Made by a program: the position numbers and the translations under genes. A stretch of DNA of 56,754 bases, counting the filler, from Dirinaria sp. TL-2023a (Eukaryota): assembly GCA_051941275.1 (NCBI GenBank). It is 6 parts of 6 records of this genome, joined end to end, with 100 filler letters (N's around TTAATTAATTAA, not from the genome) between each part and the next. Parts side by side here need not be neighbours in the genome. Positions count along the whole stretch, not along the records: positions 37,943 to 47,306 come from JAVEBF010001067.1; 5 more parts are not named here. One strand, given 5' to 3'. The notes under the pieces are model-generated. The model had not been told where the DNA came from and ran no database searches. It saw nothing but the letters and a program-made list of their open reading frames with translations. Shown here one piece after another: positions 9,391-47,406 of the stretch (the stretch's first letter is position 1; each line of letters starts with the position of its first letter).

Positions 9391-9490
9391 NNNNNNNNNN
9401 NNNNNNNNNNNNNNNNNNNNNNNNNNNNNNNNNNTTAATTAATTAANNNNNNNNNNNNNNNNNNNNNNNNNNNNNNNNNNNNNNNNNNNN
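9391..9490. other. Artificial contig spacer (N44-TTAATTAATTAA-N44)
   Basis: Six-frame-stop linker flanked by Ns, identical at all five junctions. Confidence 0.99.
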
Positions 9491-18878: not shown

Positions 18879-18978
18879 NNNNNNNNNNNNNNNNNNNNNN
18901 NNNNNNNNNNNNNNNNNNNNNNTTAATTAATTAANNNNNNNNNNNNNNNNNNNNNNNNNNNNNNNNNNNNNNNNNNNN
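18879..18978. other. Artificial contig spacer
   Basis: N44-TTAATTAATTAA-N44. Confidence 0.99.
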
Positions 18979-28362: not shown

Positions 28363-28462
28363 NNNNNNNNNNNNNNNNNNNNNNNNNNNNNNNNNNNNNN
28401 NNNNNNTTAATTAATTAANNNNNNNNNNNNNNNNNNNNNNNNNNNNNNNNNNNNNNNNNNNN
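28363..28462. other. Artificial contig spacer
   Basis: N44-TTAATTAATTAA-N44. Confidence 0.99.
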
Positions 28463-37053: not shown

Positions 37054-37842
37054 TTATCCTCGCTCAGTGCAAGGTTCCAAAATACGGAGAGCGCTGCCAA
37101 CAAGATACAGGCTACCCGTTATAAGAGTCAGCATGCCTTCACCTTGGTCAGAGGCCTTGGCAAGACTCAAAGCCCCCTCTACCGTCGGCTCCACTGATAC
37201 CATGGCGTTTGGCTGGAACTCTGTCCAAGCATTGATGTACTGCTGTTGTAGAATTTCAGAAAGGGGCAACTTATCGCCGCCAGCTGATGCTTAGTTAGGC
37301 CAAGCACTACTCAGAATGATGATCCTCAGCTCACCGGTATCCTCTTGGCCATCTAGTCGCTCGTGGTAAGTACTTAAGATGAGATGATTGATGGCAACAC
37401 CGTGATTATGTAGGGTTCTGGCTATGGTACGTAGCATCGCTGCTCCGTCACGTTGAGAAAGGTGACTGAAGATGAGGATACGTGGTATTGGTCCTAGATG
37501 TCTGCACAGTTGTGTCAGCGCGGGCGCATAATACGACACACTCCTTTCCACAACCTGAGGTCTTTCGTCACCATTTCCGCGAACCACTGTGCCGGATATG
37601 GAACACTCAATTCATTGTGTGCTCCATCCAAGAACCATCTTTGACTTCCTTGGGTGATTTGCTGAAAGCGACCATTCCAGGAGAAATCTTCTATGCCTTC
37701 CCTAACGTCATGTGATGTTAAATGATGCTCACAATTTGGCCCTTTCTGGGAGAGAAATGCGTTCGCAAGTCGGACGGCAAGAGCAGCGTTGCTCCTTTGA
37801 ACTGCTGTCTTCATAGCTGGTGCGTCCGTGTTGTCTGCCAAC
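37054..37842 (-). CDS. Folylpolyglutamate synthase (FolC/Met7 family), 3' part with introns; 5' part beyond the contig end
   Basis: QRSNAALAVRLA, WNGRFQ, WFLDGAHN, RILIFSH and LITGSLYLVG motifs. Confidence 0.88.
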
Positions 37843-37942
37843 NNNNNNNNNNNNNNNNNNNNNNNNNNNNNNNNNNNNNNNNNNNNTTAATTAATTAANN
37901 NNNNNNNNNNNNNNNNNNNNNNNNNNNNNNNNNNNNNNNNNN
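37843..37942. other. Artificial contig spacer
   Basis: N44-TTAATTAATTAA-N44. Confidence 0.99.
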
Positions 37943-38221
37943 GTTGTGACGAAGAGTAATAATTCAGACACACGAAAGTGAATTATCCGTAGCTTGGACC
38001 CACTCGCACTTACTGAGCTTTTGATTCATTGCCTCACAATCAAGGGCCGGTATCGGATGCACCTCCTTCATTTGCTGCTGGGATATTTGTTTACTGACAA
38101 GTCACATGCATCACTTCACTTCGATGTCGCTTAAATAGTGTATTTTGATCTTGTGTCTTTTGTCTGGTTCCATTGTGCCTTTCATAGTTTGCCGAGCTTT
38201 TTACATATTTATTGCAAAGCC

Positions 38222-39177
38222 ATGGAGAAGGAGAAGAAGAGGGCAGATCTGAAGGAAGACAAGAGTCTCGGCTGTTCAACGAGTAATGAACCGCGCTCAA
38301 GACCAAAATTGGCAATTCCAGCTGCTGCTAGAATGATACGCCATGATTTGGGTCTTTCAAAAGATGTAAGAGCGAAATTTGAGAGATTTCAGGGGGAAAG
38401 AGCTTACTCACACTGGGAGCAGAAGACCGATTTATCGTCGCCGAGCAATGTTATGCATGATAATGTCGATATTACATCGCCAGGACTTCCTGTCAAGAGA
38501 TCATTGCAAGCTACGCATCCTGATCCTTCGAAAGATGCTGCGGCACTACCGAGGCCTTCTTCGAGCTCCTTAAAGGAGGAGAATCATCTTGAAGAGCGCA
38601 CCAATAGCAGTGGCACGAATTTATCCTCTTAGAACTTCAAGCGCAGTGTCACTCATGCATCAGCAGAAACTCTTCTTAAGGAACCATCGCAAGCCACGCA
38701 TCCGGATCCATCGAAAGGCTCCATGTTACCACCGACGCACTTTTCAAGTCCATTGGAAGGAAGACCGGCTCTTGAAGAGCGCACCAATAGTGTAAGGAGA
38801 GCCCTTACCTCTAACCATGAAACCCAGAAATGCCGCTGATAACCCAATCAATCAAGTCAACCAATCTTCCTCTCAAGACGAAGAGACCGGACCAAAAGCT
38901 CTGGGAGTGCGGTGGTCTCCGGGGTAATAGTACACGGAACAATAAAACATCACAGACCGCAGGAGCGAGCGATGTCACACAGAAAGAAGCCATCCAGAGT
39001 AGGAACACGCAGAACAATAAGGTATCCGCAGTCGTAGAAGCGAGCGATAAACAAAAAAGACAGAAGGAGGCTATTCAAGCCTGGCATCGTGAGTATCTAT
39101 CTCATGCCTTTTCTTGCTCTTGCTCTGATCATGCCGGAGAACTGATTCTAGATAACAAACAGATGTATCGTGAATGA
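38222..39177 (+). pseudogene. Low-complexity hypothetical gene or pseudogene with an internal duplication interrupted by an in-frame TAG
   Basis: ATG at 38222; the module QATHPDPSK...LEERTNS occurs twice in the same frame on either side of TAG 38630-38632; plausible GTAAGG and GTGAGT introns downstream. Confidence 0.45.
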
Positions 39178-39972
39178 GCCAGTAGGACCAGATCCTGGTA
39201 GAAGCCTTCACCGGAGAAATGGTTCCAGGCTCTGGCTTTCCATCCGATCTGTCAACAGCGATCCACGCTCAAAAAAGGTTACCTTATGGTGCAAGACGTC
39301 TCTAACTGCAATGCTGCGTACCAAGAGAATTCAGATGTGAATAATAGCTACAAAAATAGTGATGAGAGTCGGCGCAGATAAATGCTAAGAAGCCATGATC
39401 GAGCCAATGTGATAACATTCGTCAAGATTGAAACTCGAATGAACACCTGTGCAGTTTGGGAATCTGCACGCCAGTTTTGAGCTTTCTTCTCAAGGCCATT
39501 GAGCCGCTCGAGCGTGGATCCCTTCCAAATGCGAGCGACTGAACTGTGAAAGTTACCAAAGGTGGGAACATGAGATGAATTGCCGCACACTGATATTTGG
39601 AGTAGGTTTAACCGAGACCCATGAATAACTTGCTTAATAAGCAAGCGGCCCGTTATCGGTCCGCTTTACCGCTGAAATCCTCAACATCAGCATCGAAGAA
39701 ACATCCCAACCATCACCAAATGCCCCATGGGCTCTTCAACATTTCCACAGCCAACCACAAATACCTACTAGTACTTGTCGTACCTTAGGCAAAATGAGGC
39801 AATTACCTAGCAAATGCGAAAATTTGTTGCGGAATGCACAAGCGACTGATGAAATGTCAATCATCCTCGAGGCAACGCCATGAACTCAATTTAAACGGTA
39901 TGGTCTAGGCTTATATAATCCTGCAATTTCTTTCCAATGAAATACTTCTTGCACGCTCTCCGTCTCCATTCT

Positions 39973-42087
39973 CTATTTGGACTTTGAACCGCTTGCTAAA
40001 CTCTCCGACAATTTCCTTGCTCTCGTTTCTGTAGATGATATGATCTGGTCGCCGAGACCCATCTTGGCCCCACTGACATGGTCTGGAATCTCGGCGATGG
40101 TAAGTCTTTGCAATATCTTGGGCTCGCGAGAAATATAAGTCGTCCTGATGGGGCTGGTCAGGAGCAAAATCAGTATTGGTGGATTTGATTTTGCAAGGCT
40201 TGTTAATTCCCTAACGATCTTGCCGGTATCATCGCATTGGTGACGGCTTTCGTAGTATGAGACTCCGTCGAGAATGCATACAACAGGAGTCGCCTCAGAT
40301 GAACGTCGAAGCAATCTTTGAAAGAGGTCCAGAAGCTTTTTGAGATCTTGCGTATCTAGATCATTTTGATCATCCATGCTGCATCTGCAACATGACAAGC
40401 AGAGAAGCTGGCAGATGAGACTACGCAGCATACCTAAGGGGTTTCCGCCAGCTCCATGGCTATGCAAGCCACAGAACCAATAAAGTGTGGGAAAGGACAA
40501 TTTCTTCCAGAAGACGTGGATCAGCAAAGCGCAAGCAACAGATGTCGGAGAGAAGGGATCGTAGCGTCGACTGTTACCGTGGACCAACAGCGCTCCGAAA
40601 AGTGGGTTGAGCAGCCAGCCTTGCATCTCTTTATGCTCGACCATTGCTCCTACCCGGTCTTGATCTGCCAAAGTCATTGATTCAATCTGGCTCAGCACAT
40701 ACTCCACATCGCGTGACGGGTCGTCATGGAGGGGTCCGAAACGGTCAAGCAGCGACCTCCGTGCAGTCACGTTCTTCTCTTCAACAGCTAATGGTTAGCA
40801 CAACGTGACAGGGAACATGAGCTTTTTAATCACCTTCTTGCTCCAAGATTGCCTTGTTTCTGCTTACTCTCCGAGCTTCTTTTGCTGACTTGGACTCCTT
40901 CCAGCCTGAAAGCTTAAGCGACATGAGCATGGTTTTTTCAGTTGTGATACCTACTTTGCAGAACTTCTTGCCACATCTCGCTATCCTTGAAGACGTTGTA
41001 CAGATGATTGCGCGCTTCAACAGCAAGAATCTTCAGTTGTCCCACCTGATCATGAGCTGAATAAAGGCATTAGCTTCATCGCTACAGCTGATCGTAAAAC
41101 AACCATACTTTGTCCGGTAACAGCTTGGATGGTTTTTAACCTATCCTGCTGCCTCTCACTCGCTCGTTCATCCATGGCCTGTGACGCTTTCTCTACATTC
41201 TTCATTTTAGTCTTCAGCATTTCTGCGTATGCAGGACCTTTGCAGAAAGCGCTAATATACTTCACTGATAGTAATCAGTAACGATCCACGCTGACTTACT
41301 TGCGTGGACTTTAGAAACTTACGGCCTGCCGCGTGTTTATACCACCCAAGGATGTGCTGAAGTGCATCTATTATGGCCACATAAAGATTTTCCATCTGCT
41401 GGTTTACATGCTGATAGCCGTACGTCCGCATGAAGAATTGCGCTTTCTCGATGCGCAGAGGCATCTCGTCAAGGGCACTTAAGGTCTCCTTTCGGAGCTT
41501 CCTGAGATGGACTGCCGCCTGCCTTTAATCAGCTCCTATTGCGAATCATTCCCATGGATGCATGCCTCTAGAATTATCGTCAAACCACCGCATACAACGG
41601 AGCCATATATTGAGGTTGATGGCAAAAGTTTCAACCATGCTTCGATAGCTGGCGCGGCAGTTTGGAAAGTCTTCAGTCCATGGTCTATTTTCTTCAGGAT
41701 GCCTCTTTGGCCGACACCTGTATATTTCTTGCGGGCTTCATCGGCATATTCCATCACCTCATTCCATGTATGAGTAGCGCGAAGATCGATCGCGGACTTG
41801 TATTTCGGTTTTACCCCTTGCTGGAACTGTTCTAGCGCATTGGAAAAGGCCTTCTGACTGTCGAACAAGGCTGCTTCATCGTACAGGTCTTCAGACTCCG
41901 CAGCAAAGCAGTCATTACTCGTATCATATTTGAGTCCAGAGCCTTCGAAAGCAGGATGAAGGTCCTCAGTAACGCGGTTTTTAGCATAGGTCGCCGACTC
42001 TTTGAAGGTATTTGGGCTCGGTAAGTCGTCGCGAAGCGTTTCATCATCAGGAATACTCTGAGAATCTCTTGTTAAATTTGGTGTCAT
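39973..42087 (-). CDS. Helical STAND-type N-terminal domain plus degenerate, truncated NACHT-like domain; about 6 exons
   Basis: N-terminal HTWNEVM...AIEAWLKLLPSTSIYGSVVCGGLTIILE|AA resembles the N-terminal domains of fungal NACHT proteins. C-terminal WL...LLVHGN...YWFCGLH...MLRSLICQLL...VVCILDGVSYYE...LLLTSP follows the NACHT core order but lacks GK[ST]. All exons splice in frame, using one GC-AG intron (41565-41519). Confidence 0.8.
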
Positions 42088-43332
42088 ATTTTGGATAAGA
42101 TTCTTTGATATGGTTCTGGCATTTCTCTTCTTTATTACTGGAGATCGTGCTCATGGCACGCTGCCAATTATCTGCGGGGGCACGGCACGGTCTTGCGCCC
42201 ACGCGCGGCTTCTCTGTTGCCCGAAGTTAGTTAATAACGCTTCACTTTTTACAAGCTTGGGTGGGTCGGCATCCGTTCGAACTCAGCCTTGCGCGGTCAA
42301 TCCCAAGGTGTGACGCGATAACGATCTGCGGTATAGATGGATGGTACTACAGATGCCAATATTCACTAAAATGCAGGACCACTTCGAGTAAAAGCCACTT
42401 AAGAGGTCTTGTACGTTCTCCATGAGCGTTGCAAACCTGGTCCGTCTTTTTCGAACGTGGCAGCCTCGCGAACCGCAGCTGCAGCTGTAAAGACTACCCG
42501 TGCTACGTTCCCGAGGCTGGCACATAAGGTACAAACCCACTTAGAGTCTACTAGCTCCCAGCCTTGCTCAAGATCACAATACCTTACGAGGCCTTCGTAC
42601 ACCCAACTCATTTCGGACAAGGTTGCATTCCAGGTCGGTTTTATTGAGGCACATGCAAGTCAAGCGTCGGTAGCGAGATCGACTTAAAATCCAAGAGCCT
42701 CGCTTCTTGCAAGCCATTCTAGCGTTGCTCTGCAAGGCTACACCTCCACATCATGCAATACCGCCTCCGCAACATAGACTGGGCTTGAGTCTAAAATGCA
42801 TCCTCTCTAGTCCACGGTGAGTGAAGCTACCAATAGCATTCATGCACAAGTCAGAGCTCAGCCCCGTGTGGTGAGTAGAACGACAGAGCCGTCGACGGGT
42901 ATTCTTTTCTCGGGCGCCTTTCGCGGGTAGAAATCATCCCTTTCACGTACGAGTACCATCCAAAGCTCGTCATTTTCAGTGGATAACACGGCTTGCGAAT
43001 GCATTGAAAGTATATCAGCTGCCAGTCTCCCTCTATATTCCAAAATATTAACCTTCCGTAAAAGCGTCTTCAAACCGTCGAGGATTTCCATAGCCTTGGC
43101 TCCACTAATGACCTAGACTTATCGGTCATTGTCTACCCTTTTTTCAGTCTAAAGCCGTAACGTTCCTTTTAATAGCGTTAGCATAGAAGGGCATTAAAGC
43201 TTCGAAGGCTTGCGTAGGATTGCTCGGGTGGATACTCCTCATACGAAACATATTTCACCTAGAATCCCATTTTCTGCCGAAATCAGTGTATCAGCCCTCT
43301 ACTAACTTCGCTTGGGCTTCAGCACCAGCGAA

Positions 43333-46300
43333 ATGTCGTCTACCCAATCTTCGGACAACAGCCAGTCGGAAGATGATGCAGGACCTATCCTGCGCAAACG
43401 TTTGGACTCCACTCCCCGTACACCACTCTTCCCTGAAGACGCTTTTCCTAGTACCGAGGCATCCAAAACGCACCGCAGTAACTCTTTCGTCCGCTTCCAA
43501 GAGGACGAGAACAGTCCAATATCTAGAAAAGTGCCGAACAATCCGACGATATTACCTGCAAACAACGACGAAGATGATGCGGCGAAGAATTCACACCAAA
43601 TCCAATCTCAACTTTTCGACCGCATCGCATCACTGGAGAACCAGCTTCAGAATCTAGAGCTCTCGAGACATCCCGGGAGCTCGGAGAAAGGCGAAAGTAC
43701 GTCCGAGCAAACCGGTTTGAGCACAGAGATCCAATGGATGAGCTGGCAGGAATACTTGGAAGATGCAACAAAAGCATCGAATATCCTCGAAGTCCTTATT
43801 GAAAAGCCTCACACCAACAGCAGACGCAGAACCTCCGCTTCTCAGCCCACGCTCGAGGTCCCACGAAGGACATCGACAAAGTCGCAGCCGAACCCCCACA
43901 AGAATATTGAGCGCATTCGAATCAGATCATTCCACATCATCAACGCCCTGCAAACCATAACGGAACAAACGTTTTCCCATTCAACTCGCCTTATAATTCA
44001 TCGCCCTTTCAAAGTCCTATTGTTCTACAAGGAGCAAATACTAGATCACCTTGAGGAGCTGGAGCATGACTTTGCGGAGAACACCCTGTGCCCTCTTGGA
44101 GAGAAGTGTAAAGGATTTGTCCAGTTGGATGACGGAAATGTCAGCCCTCAAGGCTCACGGCGCAGACGTAGCAGCAGCAACATCAATACCCGACGAGCGC
44201 CTTCAGATGAATCTGCACGTGGGCTTTTACCAAGCGGCGCGCCTTCTATGAGATCAGACGACAGTAAATGCAGACACGAGGTGTCCGAAGAACTACTGGC
44301 CCAAGTAGAAGCTATCACGCACCTTCGAATACTCACCAAGTTCATGAAAGGAGATATGCATGAGATTTTCGAAAAACACGAACTGCTCCGATCTCGTAAG
44401 GCAACCACGATTGCTTTCCAAGACATGTGGCATCTTTTCATGGCCGGGGACCTGGTCGTTGCGGAAAGCGAATCCAGTGAAAGGGGTCTGGAATTGTATC
44501 AAGTAGCGATCCTTCCCGCTTGCGACCTGTTTTCAAGCAGACGGCCGGTCAAGCAGATCCAGACCAGAACCGAGGGGTCACACCAACTCGTCGAATCGGT
44601 GTACCGGGAAGAAGCAGTCAGCGTCATGAGCGTCTTCACCGTCGACGTGTTCTACTTTGACTTTGACGGACACAAATTCGGCCCCGTCGAGCGACGCATG
44701 CAGTTGATCTCCTACGAAGGGGAGAAGAATATTGTGGACCTGCCAGTGTACCCTCTTCGATTCCGCAAAGATGCCGCCCAAGTCAAAACCACGATGCTGG
44801 AACGAGGCATGAAGTTTCGAGAACTATCCGCCCCGAATATGTACCCCCATCGCGAGTATAACGGCCTAAGTGTGGGTGAGCCGCAAGAACAGGTAAGCTG
44901 AACCCCCCAGCGAGCGCTCTCGAGGGGGACGAATCTCAAACCGCTAAAACACCCTCGTGTCTCTATCTAGATCGACAGTCAGGTCATCATCGACTTCGCT
45001 TTAGCATACCAAAAGCATCCCAAGAATGCGCCAAAGTTTGGCCTCAGATCTTGGATTGAGGATGATGCGAGGATAGTTGTATGTACTTCCCTTTTTTTTT
45101 TGGTGTGAATTCCAGTACTACGAGAGCATATGCTAATGCAGCAAGCGACTAGACCGAAGCATGCGGCGTCCCCGGCTGCACGGACTGTTTCAAGGACAGG
45201 TTCATGTTCGACGATCACAGAGTGGATCGTCAGAGGACAGTTGAGTTCATCAGAGCCAACGGGTCACTTCTGCGGGCCATCAGTAACAGCGACGAGTTGA
45301 CCGACAGCATGATGATACTTCTGCCGCAGAAAGTCTACGGATTCGTGCTGCGCAGTCGAAGGTGGCATTTCCTTAACATCGACAACATCCGTCCGCTCGA
45401 GCGCAACAGCGACGGCTTCGAATCTCTGATCCTTCCTCCCGGTGTGGCGAGACTGGTGGAGTCGCTCGTGAAAACGCATGAGCCGCAGAGTGTGTCTGCG
45501 TCCACCGGCGGCAGCGACGGCGAAGAAGAGCACCATGTCGATCTGGTGCGTGGAAAAGGAAAAGGTCTGGTCATTCTGCTCCACGGAGCCCCCGGCGTGG
45601 GGAAGACCAGTACAGCCGAGTGTGTGGCGGATTACACGCATCGACCTCTTTTCCCCATCACCTGTGGCGACATTGGTGAGACGTCGAAGGAGGTCGAGCA
45701 CAACCTGGAGCAGAATTTTAGTCTTGCTCACCGATGGGGATGTGTACTTCTGGTGAGTGGAAACACTTCTGTTTTCGTAATCGTTCAAGCAGCTCTGTTG
45801 TTCTTTGATCTCGTTTTAATATAGAGTACCTTACACTAACACCATTCCTCATGTCCTAGCTCGACGAAGCCGACGTCTTCCTCCAAGCGCGAGACCGAGA
45901 AAACATGCGGCGCAACAGCGTCGTCTCCGTCTTCCTGCGCGTCCTCGAGTACTACTCAGGCATCCTCTTCCTGACGACCAACAAAATCGGGCACTTCGAC
46001 GAAGCCTTCAAGTCGCGCATCCACGTCAGCCTGCTCTACCCGCCGCTCGACAAACGCTCGACGCTCAAGGTGTGGAAAATGAACCTCGAGCGGCTGTGCA
46101 AGGGCAAGAAAAGGACGCTCGAGGTCGAGGCGGACGAGATCTACGAGTACGCGCGCAACCACTACAAGGAGCTGCACCGCCACGGCAAAACGACGTGGAA
46201 CGGGCGCCAGATCAAGAACGCGTTTCAGACCGCCATCGCCCTCGCCGAGTTCGACGCGAACAAGAAGCAGGGCAAGCCGGTGCTCGCGCTGGAGCATTTC

Positions 46301-46699
46301 AAGGTCGTCGCGCAGGCGTCGGAGGATTTCGACGATTACCTGTGTCGCGTCCACGGCGGTACCGAGGCCGATCTGGCAAAGAGGTTTTTGTTGAGGGATG
46401 ATGATCATCCTCCTGCTGTTGGTGAGGGGAGGAGGCAGAGTTTACCCTACAGTATGGCGGGCATGATGAGGAACTCTAGTAGGAGGCAGCAGAGTTCGAC
46501 GACGACGACCACGACGACGGACGAGAGCAGCGAGGATGAAGAGGCCACCGCCGCCGCCGCCGCTGCTGCTGCTAAGGAAAAAAGGAGGCGCAAGAAGGAA
46601 AAGAAGGTGGCGCGGAAGAAGACTACTAGCAGTAGCAAAAACAAGGAGAAGGCGAAGGTGTCGTCTGAGAGCGAGGATTTGTCTTCTTCTCTGGAGTAG
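43333..46699 (+). CDS. Fungal AAA+ ATPase with large N-terminal (DUF7025-type) region, about 1035 aa; exons 43333-44892, 44971-45078, 45153-45752, 45860-46699
   Basis: ERIRIRS, IAFQDMWHLFMAGDLV, FDFDGHKFGP, DLPVYPLRF and ERGMKF in the N-terminal region. AAA core: DLVRGKGKGLVILLHGAPGVGKT (Walker A), VLL|LDEAD (Walker B), LFLTTN, DEAFKSRIH, WNGRQIKN. Acidic/basic tail. Confidence 0.93.
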
Positions 46700-47306
46700 G
46701 AGACTTTTGGTTCGGGAAATGATGATGATGATATGTTTCATTTTTTGCATTGAGCACGGGTCTTGCGTTTTTTTTTTTTTGTTTTTTTTTTGTGGAGCAT
46801 TGTTGCATAAAGCTATCATGAGTTCTTACTTTTGCTCTTACCTGTTTTATCTATATACTTATAAGCATAACGGCTCCCTTTTTTGAATCTTGAAGCTGAC
46901 GGATTTTTATTTTTTCCCTTCGTTTTGAATCCGGTCAGTAGGAATTTGGGGGGCTGAGCTGTGCTAAGTTTATTCGATAGATGGGCTGCTGCGCAAAATA
47001 TCTACATAATTGCCGGGTGTTGCCGAATGAGTGGTTGATCAGTATCTGTCGCTTTACGCCTAGGCGGGTGACCATTGCATGGGGAGTAGCAAAATAGAGC
47101 TGAGGGATCCCATGAAACCAAGCGCTGCGAAGGATTGGCTTACCGGAGCCATTGGTATAATTCCAGGGGCTTTTCTAGCGAGCCAAGGTAATGTCTGTCC
47201 CAGTGTCGCGGAAAACCCACCGTGCCGGAAAATAAGATGGGTACTTTGACTTCAAGCGAGGATAACTCTGCGCACATATCGAACTTCATTAGCATTAGAT
47301 ATCCAT

Positions 47307-47406
47307 NNNNNNNNNNNNNNNNNNNNNNNNNNNNNNNNNNNNNNNNNNNNTTAATTAATTAANNNNNNNNNNNNNNNNNNNNNNNNNNNNNNNNNNNNNN
47401 NNNNNN
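47307..47406. other. Artificial contig spacer
   Basis: N44-TTAATTAATTAA-N44. Confidence 0.99.

Follow-up and report, generated by a model that had tools for sequence, protein, structure and literature searches.

A head-to-head gene pair encoding a P-loop-less NACHT-like protein and a classical AAA ATPase is conserved between lichen genomes and distant metagenome loci

Results

A divergent gene pair on a single Dirinaria contig

The window analysed here is a 56,754-nucleotide stretch, filler included, from the genome of Dirinaria sp. TL-2023a (GenBank assembly GCA_051941275.1), comprising six separate contigs of 9390, 9388, 9384, 9380, 9364 and 9348 bases joined by artificial spacers of the form N44-TTAATTAATTAA-N44. 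The genes of interest lie entirely within the fifth segment (37943-47306), whose 9364 bases match the longest contig recorded for each of the two encoded proteins, and where a minus-strand gene encoding a NACHT-like protein devoid of a P-loop, referred to below as the pseudo-NACHT protein, stands head to head with a plus-strand gene encoding an AAA ATPase (Table 1). Both genes were located where an earlier, sequence-only reading of the window had placed them, and its description of two intact multi-exon genes diverging from a 1245-bp spacer was borne out by the gene models and by splice joints in RNA. Since the segments are separate contigs, genes on the other five are unlinked to the pair, and arguments from neighbourhood across the N spacers are invalid.

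Transcript evidence was drawn from three RNA-seq runs of one lichen sample, the contigs from which are 90-99% alike and cover 39930-42073 and 42647-46489, thereby reaching 42073 on the minus-gene side of the spacer and starting at 42647 on the plus-gene side; coming from a single sample, they are uninformative on expression levels or transcript ends. Splice joints were recovered for five introns of the minus gene and two of the plus gene, indicating that both genes are transcribed and spliced. The joints match minus-gene introns 41265-41322 and 40906-40954 and plus-gene introns 45079-45152 and 45753-45859, while that for minus-gene intron 41057-41108 carries nine replaced letters. The first minus-gene intron is an RNA-supported, 47-nucleotide GC-AG intron (41519-41565). 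The corresponding database protein, P0151 (610 amino acids; annotated in its source as hypothetical, from a metagenome-assembled genome of a Dirinaria sp.), equals the present model except for the use of a GT donor at 41595 in this intron, 30 bases upstream, which drops ten family-conserved residues (VCGGLTIILE) that the GC-AG form retains. The last minus-gene intron in the RNA spans 40779-40833, its acceptor lying nine bases further in than in either our own or the database model; the shift removes three residues (AVE) and may represent a strain difference or an alternative acceptor. The plus-gene translation is identical to database protein P0164, which carries the next locus tag after P0151 in the same record. 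An upstream open reading frame of 35 codons (42051-42155, minus strand) starts 68 bases before the minus-gene ATG and overlaps the gene in another frame.

Table 1. Positions in the window of the two genes, their domains and motifs, and the joining spacers
Feature	Position	Strand	Remarks
Pseudo-NACHT gene	39973..42087	-	620 amino acids; ATG at 42087, stop codon ends 39973
Pseudo-NACHT gene exons (six)	42087-41566, 41518-41323, 41264-41109, 41056-40955, 40905-40834, 40787-39973	-	
Conserved N-terminal motif TYAKNRVTEDLHPAFEGSGLKYD	41923..41991	-	Family consensus ..DFIDN..(Y)HPAF......YD (alignments A1, A3)
DUF7708 helical bundle, then helix of ~95 residues	41130..41620 (approximate; spans introns 1 and 2)	-	Pfam and full-length model
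NACHT-type nucleotide-binding-domain fold (NPHP3_N) without nucleotide-binding motif	40153..40641	-	Pfam, AlphaFold2, VIA-align
Loop replacing Walker A, HGNSRRYDPFSPTS	40540..40581	-	Family consensus [NHD]-G-N-x5-8-[IV]-S-P-x-S
Walker-B-like strand VVCILDGVSYYE	40249..40284	-	Family D 147/150, E 147/150
Strand 4/sensor-1 position ILILLLTSPIR	40144..40176	-	Family consensus FKLLxTSP
Divergent intergenic region	42088-43332	.	1245 bp, between the two ATGs
AAA ATPase gene	43333..46699	+	1035 amino acids; ATG at 43333, stop codon ends 46699
AAA ATPase gene exons (four)	43333-44892, 44971-45078, 45153-45752, 45860-46699	+	
DUF7025 domain	44383..44766	+	Pfam 1.1e-19; within conserved N-terminal region, residues ~94-690
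AAA domain, spans intron 3	45573..46033	+	Pfam AAA 3.8e-19
Walker A GAPGVGKTS	45585-45611	+	
Walker B LL/LDEAD, split by intron 3	45747-45752 plus 45860-45874	+	
AAA_lid_13 (fungal AAA+ lid domain)	46046..46360	+	Pfam 1.3e-20
Artificial spacers N44-TTAATTAATTAA-N44	9391-9490, 18879-18978, 28363-28462, 37843-37942, 47307-47406		

The minus-strand protein has a NACHT-type core without nucleotide-binding or sensor elements

The minus-strand protein had been described as a helical N-terminal domain followed by a NACHT-ordered core, and both parts were recovered. Pfam searches matched DUF7708 (29.4 bits; E of 1.2e-5 on exon 2 and 8e-7 on P0151) and NPHP3_N (PF24883), the latter scoring 38 bits with exon 6 as query and 36.7 bits with P0151 (cut-off 24.8) and spanning profile positions 7-163 of 164. 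The fold of the C-terminal domain, which had been put forward as a test of the earlier reading, was modelled with AlphaFold2 from a 150-row alignment at a predicted local distance difference test (pLDDT) score of 95.2, and is that of a P-loop/STAND protein: a five-stranded alpha/beta core (strands at 65-69, 100-104, 168-173, 205-211 and 228-232) plus a single helix. Comparison with 48,161 solved chains by VIA-align placed Avs3 first (Z 12.9, 188 residues aligned, root-mean-square deviation (rmsd) 3.6), followed by archaeal Cdc6/Orc1 at Z 12.3-12.6; other matches were ORC subunits, TnsC, MalT, a TPR-STAND protein, ZAR1, Apaf-1 and CED-4, with Cdc6, ORC, MalT, Apaf-1 and ZAR1 falling within Z 9-12.6 and the Cdc6/ORC group mainly at Z 11-12.6. 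Foldseek searches of the PDB with the domain and full-length models returned the same kinds of protein, weakly (best E 2.8e-3; ORC, Cdc6, MalT), and a profile search of solved structures with alignment A2 found no sequence relative.

In the full-length model (pLDDT 78.8) the core is preceded by a ~95-residue helix and, ahead of that, a helical bundle, with helices at 164-326. Within it, N-domain residues 155-270 matched only generic helical bundles (Z no higher than 11), and MLKL was not among the best 50 structure matches, which is not evidence of absence. The Goodbye (PF17109) and NACHT_N (PF17100) profiles gave no match at E<=0.01, DUF7708 being the only one that did, and the putative Goodbye connection of this domain rests on source-given names of relatives, which database sources label 'Goodbye domain-containing' or 'NWD NACHT-NTPase N-terminal domain-containing'. 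According to Wojciechowski et al. (2022; PMC9815663), Goodbye-like domains have a four-helix core in common with MLKL and HeLo but no demonstrated function.

Motif, Pfam and model checks agreed with the earlier statement that the P-loop lacks GK[ST] and that neither a winged helix nor a sensor follows. The Walker B aspartate is present at the end of a hydrophobic strand (VVCILD173), with an acidic residue, E179, at +6; the DE of NACHT Walker B motifs stands at +3/+4. At the sensor-1 position the protein reads TSP, the proline being found in 128 of 149 family rows and an arginine two residues later in 65 of 149; the sensor-1 arginine of NACHT proteins forms part of a TSR motif after strand 4. 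The protein stops one helix after strand 5, so that winged helix, helical domain and repeats are all missing, and no repeat family was matched by Pfam in any of 45 family members. The lysine of the FKLL segment (40144-40176), found in 141 of 149 family members, is replaced by isoleucine in the Dirinaria protein. P0003, one lichen-clade protein in the full alignment, is also without this lysine, and P0006 (Lepraria neglecta) retains it.

Loss of the P-loop is a family trait

When the last exon was compared with 1.84 billion representative proteins, 1002 matched at E<=1e-3 and, under the stricter limit of E<=1e-10, 273 did; in the listed proteins with approximately 500-700 residues the pseudo-NACHT domain is near the C-terminus. 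DUF7708 was matched in 36 and NPHP3_N in 43 of 45 family members. The GxxxxGK[ST] motif occurs in none of the 150 best matches, and a stray GK[ST] with the wrong loop spacing in two. The loop of one metagenome member (locus L007, near 10200) reads DGHCDRARIGKTSPMS, in which GKTS is present, off the Walker A spacing, and could be a relic or a chance occurrence. The family consensus comprises LLV[NHD]GN-x5-8-[IV]SPxS, FFCGxH, RSLIxQLL, FCIIDGISxYE and FKLLxTSP, and residues at strand ends are nearly invariant (G70, C105, G106, H108, Q126, D173, E179 and TSP); C105, G106, H108, Q126, D173 and E179 are each present in 90-99% of family rows. Since no relative among the 150 carries Walker A while other positions are conserved, the missing P-loop is a trait of a conserved pseudo-NTPase family as opposed to a lesion of the Dirinaria copy. 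The sequence-only label 'Walker-A-dead' was correct as to the loss, with the correction that the loss belongs to the whole family. In P-loop NTPases the C-terminal strand ends form the nucleotide face, and the location of the conserved residues at these ends in the model suggests that the pocket has been put to another use.

The plus-strand protein is a complete AAA ATPase

Motifs and Pfam matches were consistent with the earlier description of the plus-strand product as a complete AAA+ ATPase with a large N-terminal region. In addition to the elements listed in Table 1, the protein has a sensor 1 (LFLTTN, containing TTN) and an FKSR motif, in which the arginine of the second region of homology, R809, is invariant in 20 of 20 orthologues. 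Its closest solved sequences are Rix7, p97 D1, NVL, FIGL1 and Msp1, on which basis it is placed in the classical AAA clade. The N-terminal region (residues ~94-690) is conserved among the 20 orthologues (alignment A5) and retains 25-32% identity in the partner ATPases of the distant loci described below; no solved relative of it was found by sequence. The tail of the ATPase (46440-46699, plus strand) is of low complexity, with a T run, an A run and K/S/E-rich stretches, and is probably disordered, and RNA reads seem to be cut at repeats at 46535-46579 and 46760-46799.

The two genes stay together in lichen genomes and at distant loci

The earlier reading had proposed that homologues of the two genes should be adjacent and divergent more often than expected by chance, and adjacency apparently far beyond chance recurred in two separate samples, divergence being scored in the second. 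The lichen sample was limited to species for which both partners are listed, in a source that shows one representative per 90% cluster and with candidates gathered by shared words. Consecutive locus tags on equally long contigs were found in eight of nine such species: Dirinaria (006209/006210), Blastenia (003032/003033), Ikaeria (001012/001013), Pyrenodesmia sp. 2 (003543/003542), Polycauliona sp. 2 (006596/006595), Polycauliona sp. 1 (002280/002279), Teloschistes chrysophthalmus (008503/008504) and Lecanora helva (000529/000528), which we take to span the Caliciales, Teloschistales and Lecanorales. The ninth species, Gallowayella concinna, has a partial version of each protein, alone on its own contig (2833 and 3161 bases), and these contigs are too short for two genes.

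A metagenome scan with 20 distant family members (alignment A4) yielded 19 loci, which form eight nucleotide-identity groups: L001/2/3, L004/5/6/10, L007, L008/9/19, L011/13/17b, L012/14/15/16, the second member in L017, and L018. Loci L004, L005, L010, L011, L012, L015, L016 and L018, together with the first family member in L017, have too little upstream DNA, leaving six testable groups, each with at least 5.5 kb upstream. In five of these six, tblastn with three ATPase orthologues revealed a full ATPase homologue upstream, on the opposite strand and divergent, across a spacer of about 0.7-1.3 kb (allowing for unaligned N-termini), compared with 1245 bp in the window. Pfam confirmed DUF7025, AAA and AAA_lid_13 in two of the metagenome partners, and NPHP3_N in the family genes. 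Identity between groups is 24-44% for the pseudo-NACHT domains and 36-59% for the ATPase segment. Comparison of representative loci and the window contig by tblastx found no other gene in common, indicating that the conserved entity is the pair itself and not a syntenic block; adjacency and divergence are kept while the flanks change, as defines a two-gene module. In the exceptional group, L008/9/19, the family gene starts inside DUF7708, some 320 bases behind a GMC oxidoreductase gene, and the copy is without both its 5' half (the N-domain) and the ATPase.

Controls for the pairing were provided by the DNA flanking the fetched loci and by the remaining 47 kb of the window. The only extra copy in the fetched flanks was a second ATPase fragment, in L013, and the remainder of the window yielded no further copy of either family. 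The contigs of L013 (2658-4635) and L017 (2650-4659) are 95% alike over the pair and differ in upstream content, this being the second ATPase fragment in L013 and, in L017, a second pseudo-NACHT member placed tail-to-tail with the ATPase, such that two members lie within 10 kb. By sequence, the difference suggests local duplication or turnover.

Genes on other contigs of the window

A fungal NOD-like receptor (NLR) gene is present on another contig (36063-32496, minus strand), encoding a SesB-like alpha/beta-hydrolase N-terminus, an NB-ARC-like region, DUF7779 and TPR repeats; it was considered as a member of the same cluster and rejected on account of its different contig. A folylpolyglutamate-synthase-like fragment (37054-37886, minus strand) is likewise unlinked to the pair.

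Discussion

The best reading of these data, by inference, is that an AAA motor has replaced the nucleotide switch lost by a NACHT-type protein. Specifically, it is proposed, tentatively and with a confidence somewhat short of even, that the two genes constitute an old, obligate and co-regulated ascomycete unit in which the ATPase acts as a trans nucleotide switch for a pseudo-NACHT scaffold. The minus-strand protein would derive from a fungal NACHT-type NLR, having retained a Goodbye-like/DUF7708 N-domain with its N-terminal motif, the long helix and the five-stranded core, and having lost the Walker A lysine loop, the nucleotide-clamping helical and winged-helix domains and the repeat sensor. 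Since nucleotide loop, clamp domains and sensor are all missing, the protein would be unable to switch by itself, and the plus-strand protein, presumably a single-ring ATPase of the classical clade, would be the sole ATP-using part. The ATPase is envisaged to bind the pseudo-NACHT protein via its N-terminal region and to control its assembly state in trans, the likeliest action being to keep it disassembled; this direction is the first choice because classical AAA enzymes mostly dismantle assemblies. The Goodbye-like N-domain would then deliver the output, which may be a stress response or a regulated form of cell death. That the two proteins act together is argued from their strict co-inheritance over deep divergence; their physical contact, the direction of control and the cellular role are inferred.

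Several observations weigh against this proposal, or against parts of it. The pore-loop-1 position of the ATPase (45650-45690, plus strand) reads DIGETSKE, which aligns to VIGGTSGE of Rix7 D1 and contains no aromatic residue; threading unfoldases carry an aromatic residue in this loop, and the protein is therefore a poor fit to that class of machine. With regard to linkage, locus tags in the lichen genomes give adjacency and not orientation, the metagenome sample was drawn by one peptide pattern (FC[IV]IDGI[SNT]x[YF]) and covers part of the family, and pairing was scored in one direction only, from pseudo-NACHT members towards the ATPase. The congruent trees anticipated by the earlier reading were obtained for the lichens (Mantel r=0.83, p=0.01) and for the full set of 12 pairs (r=0.86, p=1e-4), but in both cases the signal is accounted for by the species tree, a value of r=0.86 being expected of any two vertically inherited genes; they were not obtained for the seven deep representatives (r=0.13, p=0.30), so that co-phylogeny at depth is not demonstrable. 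As to contact between the two products, a complex prediction for ATPase residues 94-480 with the full pseudo-NACHT protein scored 0.00, having been run without alignments or controls, and counts neither way.

Other points bear on the function suggested for the pair. Orthologues are apparently one-to-one across lichen genera, and comparison with the RNA of a related strain gave 29 synonymous and 10 non-synonymous changes among 39 listed differences (138 more lie beyond these). At the level of sequence, one-to-one orthology and apparent purifying selection are unlike typical fungal NLR or het loci and argue against a rapidly evolving recognition locus, and a conserved cellular task would appear to fit the pattern at least as well as immunity. 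The designation of the pair as a candidate immunity or allorecognition module is not supported by the present measurements, allorecognition in particular.

These same observations lend weight to a different explanation, in which the ATPase has in the pseudo-NACHT protein its own dedicated cofactor, serving as adaptor or recruiting substrates, comparable to UBX proteins with p97 or SNAP with NSF, and the pair serves ordinary membrane or complex remodelling with no part in immunity or cell death. Apparently one-to-one orthologues in many lichen genera, the preponderance of synonymous differences, expression of both genes in a thallus RNA sample and the closeness of the ATPase to Rix7, p97, NVL, FIGL1 and Msp1 would all be expected of such a housekeeping pair. 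Conversely, the minus-strand protein is built from parts of the NLR repertoire (DUF7708/Goodbye-like and NPHP3_N), the two members within 10 kb and the 95%-identical relative with different upstream content suggest local turnover, and neither Pfam family name was found in the searched literature; on balance this explanation appears rather unlikely, if a serious contender. The constant head-to-head geometry, with its spacer of similar length throughout, and the RNA of both genes in the same sample would also be accounted for were the genes to share only regulation, via a bidirectional promoter or chromatin context, with products that do not make contact. Yet pairs held together by a promoter are not expected to last down to 24-44% identity while all flanking genes change, and in the sole unpaired copy the 5' half of the gene itself is gone as well, which renders shared regulation alone an improbable account.

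There is less still to be said for chance proximity of a decaying NLR remnant and one of the numerous AAA genes of fungi. Ascomycetes do have many members of both families, and a remnant could well be without Walker A and sensor, as the minus-strand protein is. However, its reading frame is intact, spliced and transcribed, all 150 relatives share the loss of the motif yet conserve other positions, the genes are adjacent in almost all informative lichen species and distant loci, and the remainder of the window holds no further copy of either family. Coincidence is accordingly already contradicted by the linkage and conservation data, and its probability is very small indeed.

The proposal that the ATPase switches the pseudo-NACHT scaffold in trans can be taken further, to an NLR split between two genes across the ascomycetes. 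Here, switch and sensor would have moved into the ATPase, a scaffold bearing an MLKL-related, Goodbye-like executioner would assemble by default, and the ATPase would keep it apart at the expense of ATP while its N-terminal region reads the trigger. Such a killer-and-protector unit would account for the genes never parting and for the absence of the N-domain from the sole unpaired copy; as a specific model it is nevertheless unlikely, falling in our estimation between the cofactor and shared-regulation accounts.

Irrespective of mechanism, the pairing ties a P-loop-less family to one ATPase subfamily over deep divergence, and provides a testable hypothesis for both, neither DUF7708 nor DUF7025 having a described function. 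If the ATPase does replace the switch, the pair would provide the first example of a classical AAA enzyme exerting control in trans over a scaffold of NLR origin, with bearing on how Goodbye-like domains work and on how NLR signalling may be reassembled from components on different proteins; a split NLR would amount to a new logic for NLR-type control of cell death. Even under the housekeeping reading, a branch of the fungal AAA expansion, which is large and uncharacterised, would gain a dedicated partner in the pseudo-NACHT protein. The family of ~600-residue proteins, in 1002 representative clusters, falls outside the two fungal NLR censuses compared because one requires a P-loop (PMC13449251) and the other left out an orthogroup for want of systematic C-terminal repeats (PMC12258605). 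Searches of literature listings and abstracts, supplements being outside the search, found no description of an AAA-plus-pseudo-NACHT pair, and no mention of DUF7708 or DUF7025 was found in the literature searched, where PF24883 occurs in one paper; the Protein Atlas held nothing beyond the same Pfam families and automatic names.

Among known systems, the minus-strand protein is closest in layout to the fungal NACHT-type NLRs, such as the Podospora NWD proteins (PMC4986451, PMC9815663), which have the same order of a helical Goodbye-like domain followed by an NPHP3_N/NACHT fold. FFCGxH, RSLIxQLL, hhhhDG and TSP at strand ends are shared with these proteins. Unlike them, it is devoid of GxxxxGK[ST], of helical and winged-helix domains behind the core and of a WD40, ANK or TPR sensor, measures ~600 residues against more than 1000, and, a truncated copy apart, stands beside an AAA gene. 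The P-loop variants noted in fungal NLRs by Dyrka et al. (2014; PMC4986451) are single-residue changes as opposed to loss of the motif, and head-to-head NLR pairs are rare in Sordariales according to the second census (PMC12258605). The core of the minus-strand protein also resembles those of STAND and ORC/Cdc6 proteins (Avs3 8dgc, Cdc6 1fnn and 2qby, ORC, MalT 8bob; Z 12.9-10.4 over 160-190 residues, rmsd 3.2-3.9), including ORC2/3 chains 5uj8_E and 7cte_B at Z 10.1; these cores differ in sharing 8-14% sequence identity with it and in having lid and winged-helix domains. ORC2 and ORC3 are themselves nucleotide-poor scaffolds.

In plants, sensor/helper NLR pairs such as RGA5/RGA4 and RRS1/RPS4 are divergent and co-inherited; nucleotide-dependent activity comes from one partner, and the other functions although its P-loop does not. 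The analogy drawn with them in the sequence-only reading extends to head-to-head geometry only, since the active partner here is a classical AAA ATPase and not an NLR; the inactive partner is also without a sensor. Classical AAA enzymes work with cofactors and clients, as in p97 with UBX proteins, NSF with SNAP, Vps4 with ESCRT-III, and Msp1. Like these enzymes, the plus-strand protein has a single AAA module with Walker A and B, sensor 1, arginine and lid, and a large N-terminal region, but differs from them in DUF7025, in a conserved N-terminal extension specific to the partner ATPases compared here and in the non-aromatic pore-loop-1; genetic linkage to one dedicated partner is in itself unusual among eukaryotic AAA enzymes. 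The union of NLR-derived parts with a classical AAA enzyme is a new and conserved combination of known parts.

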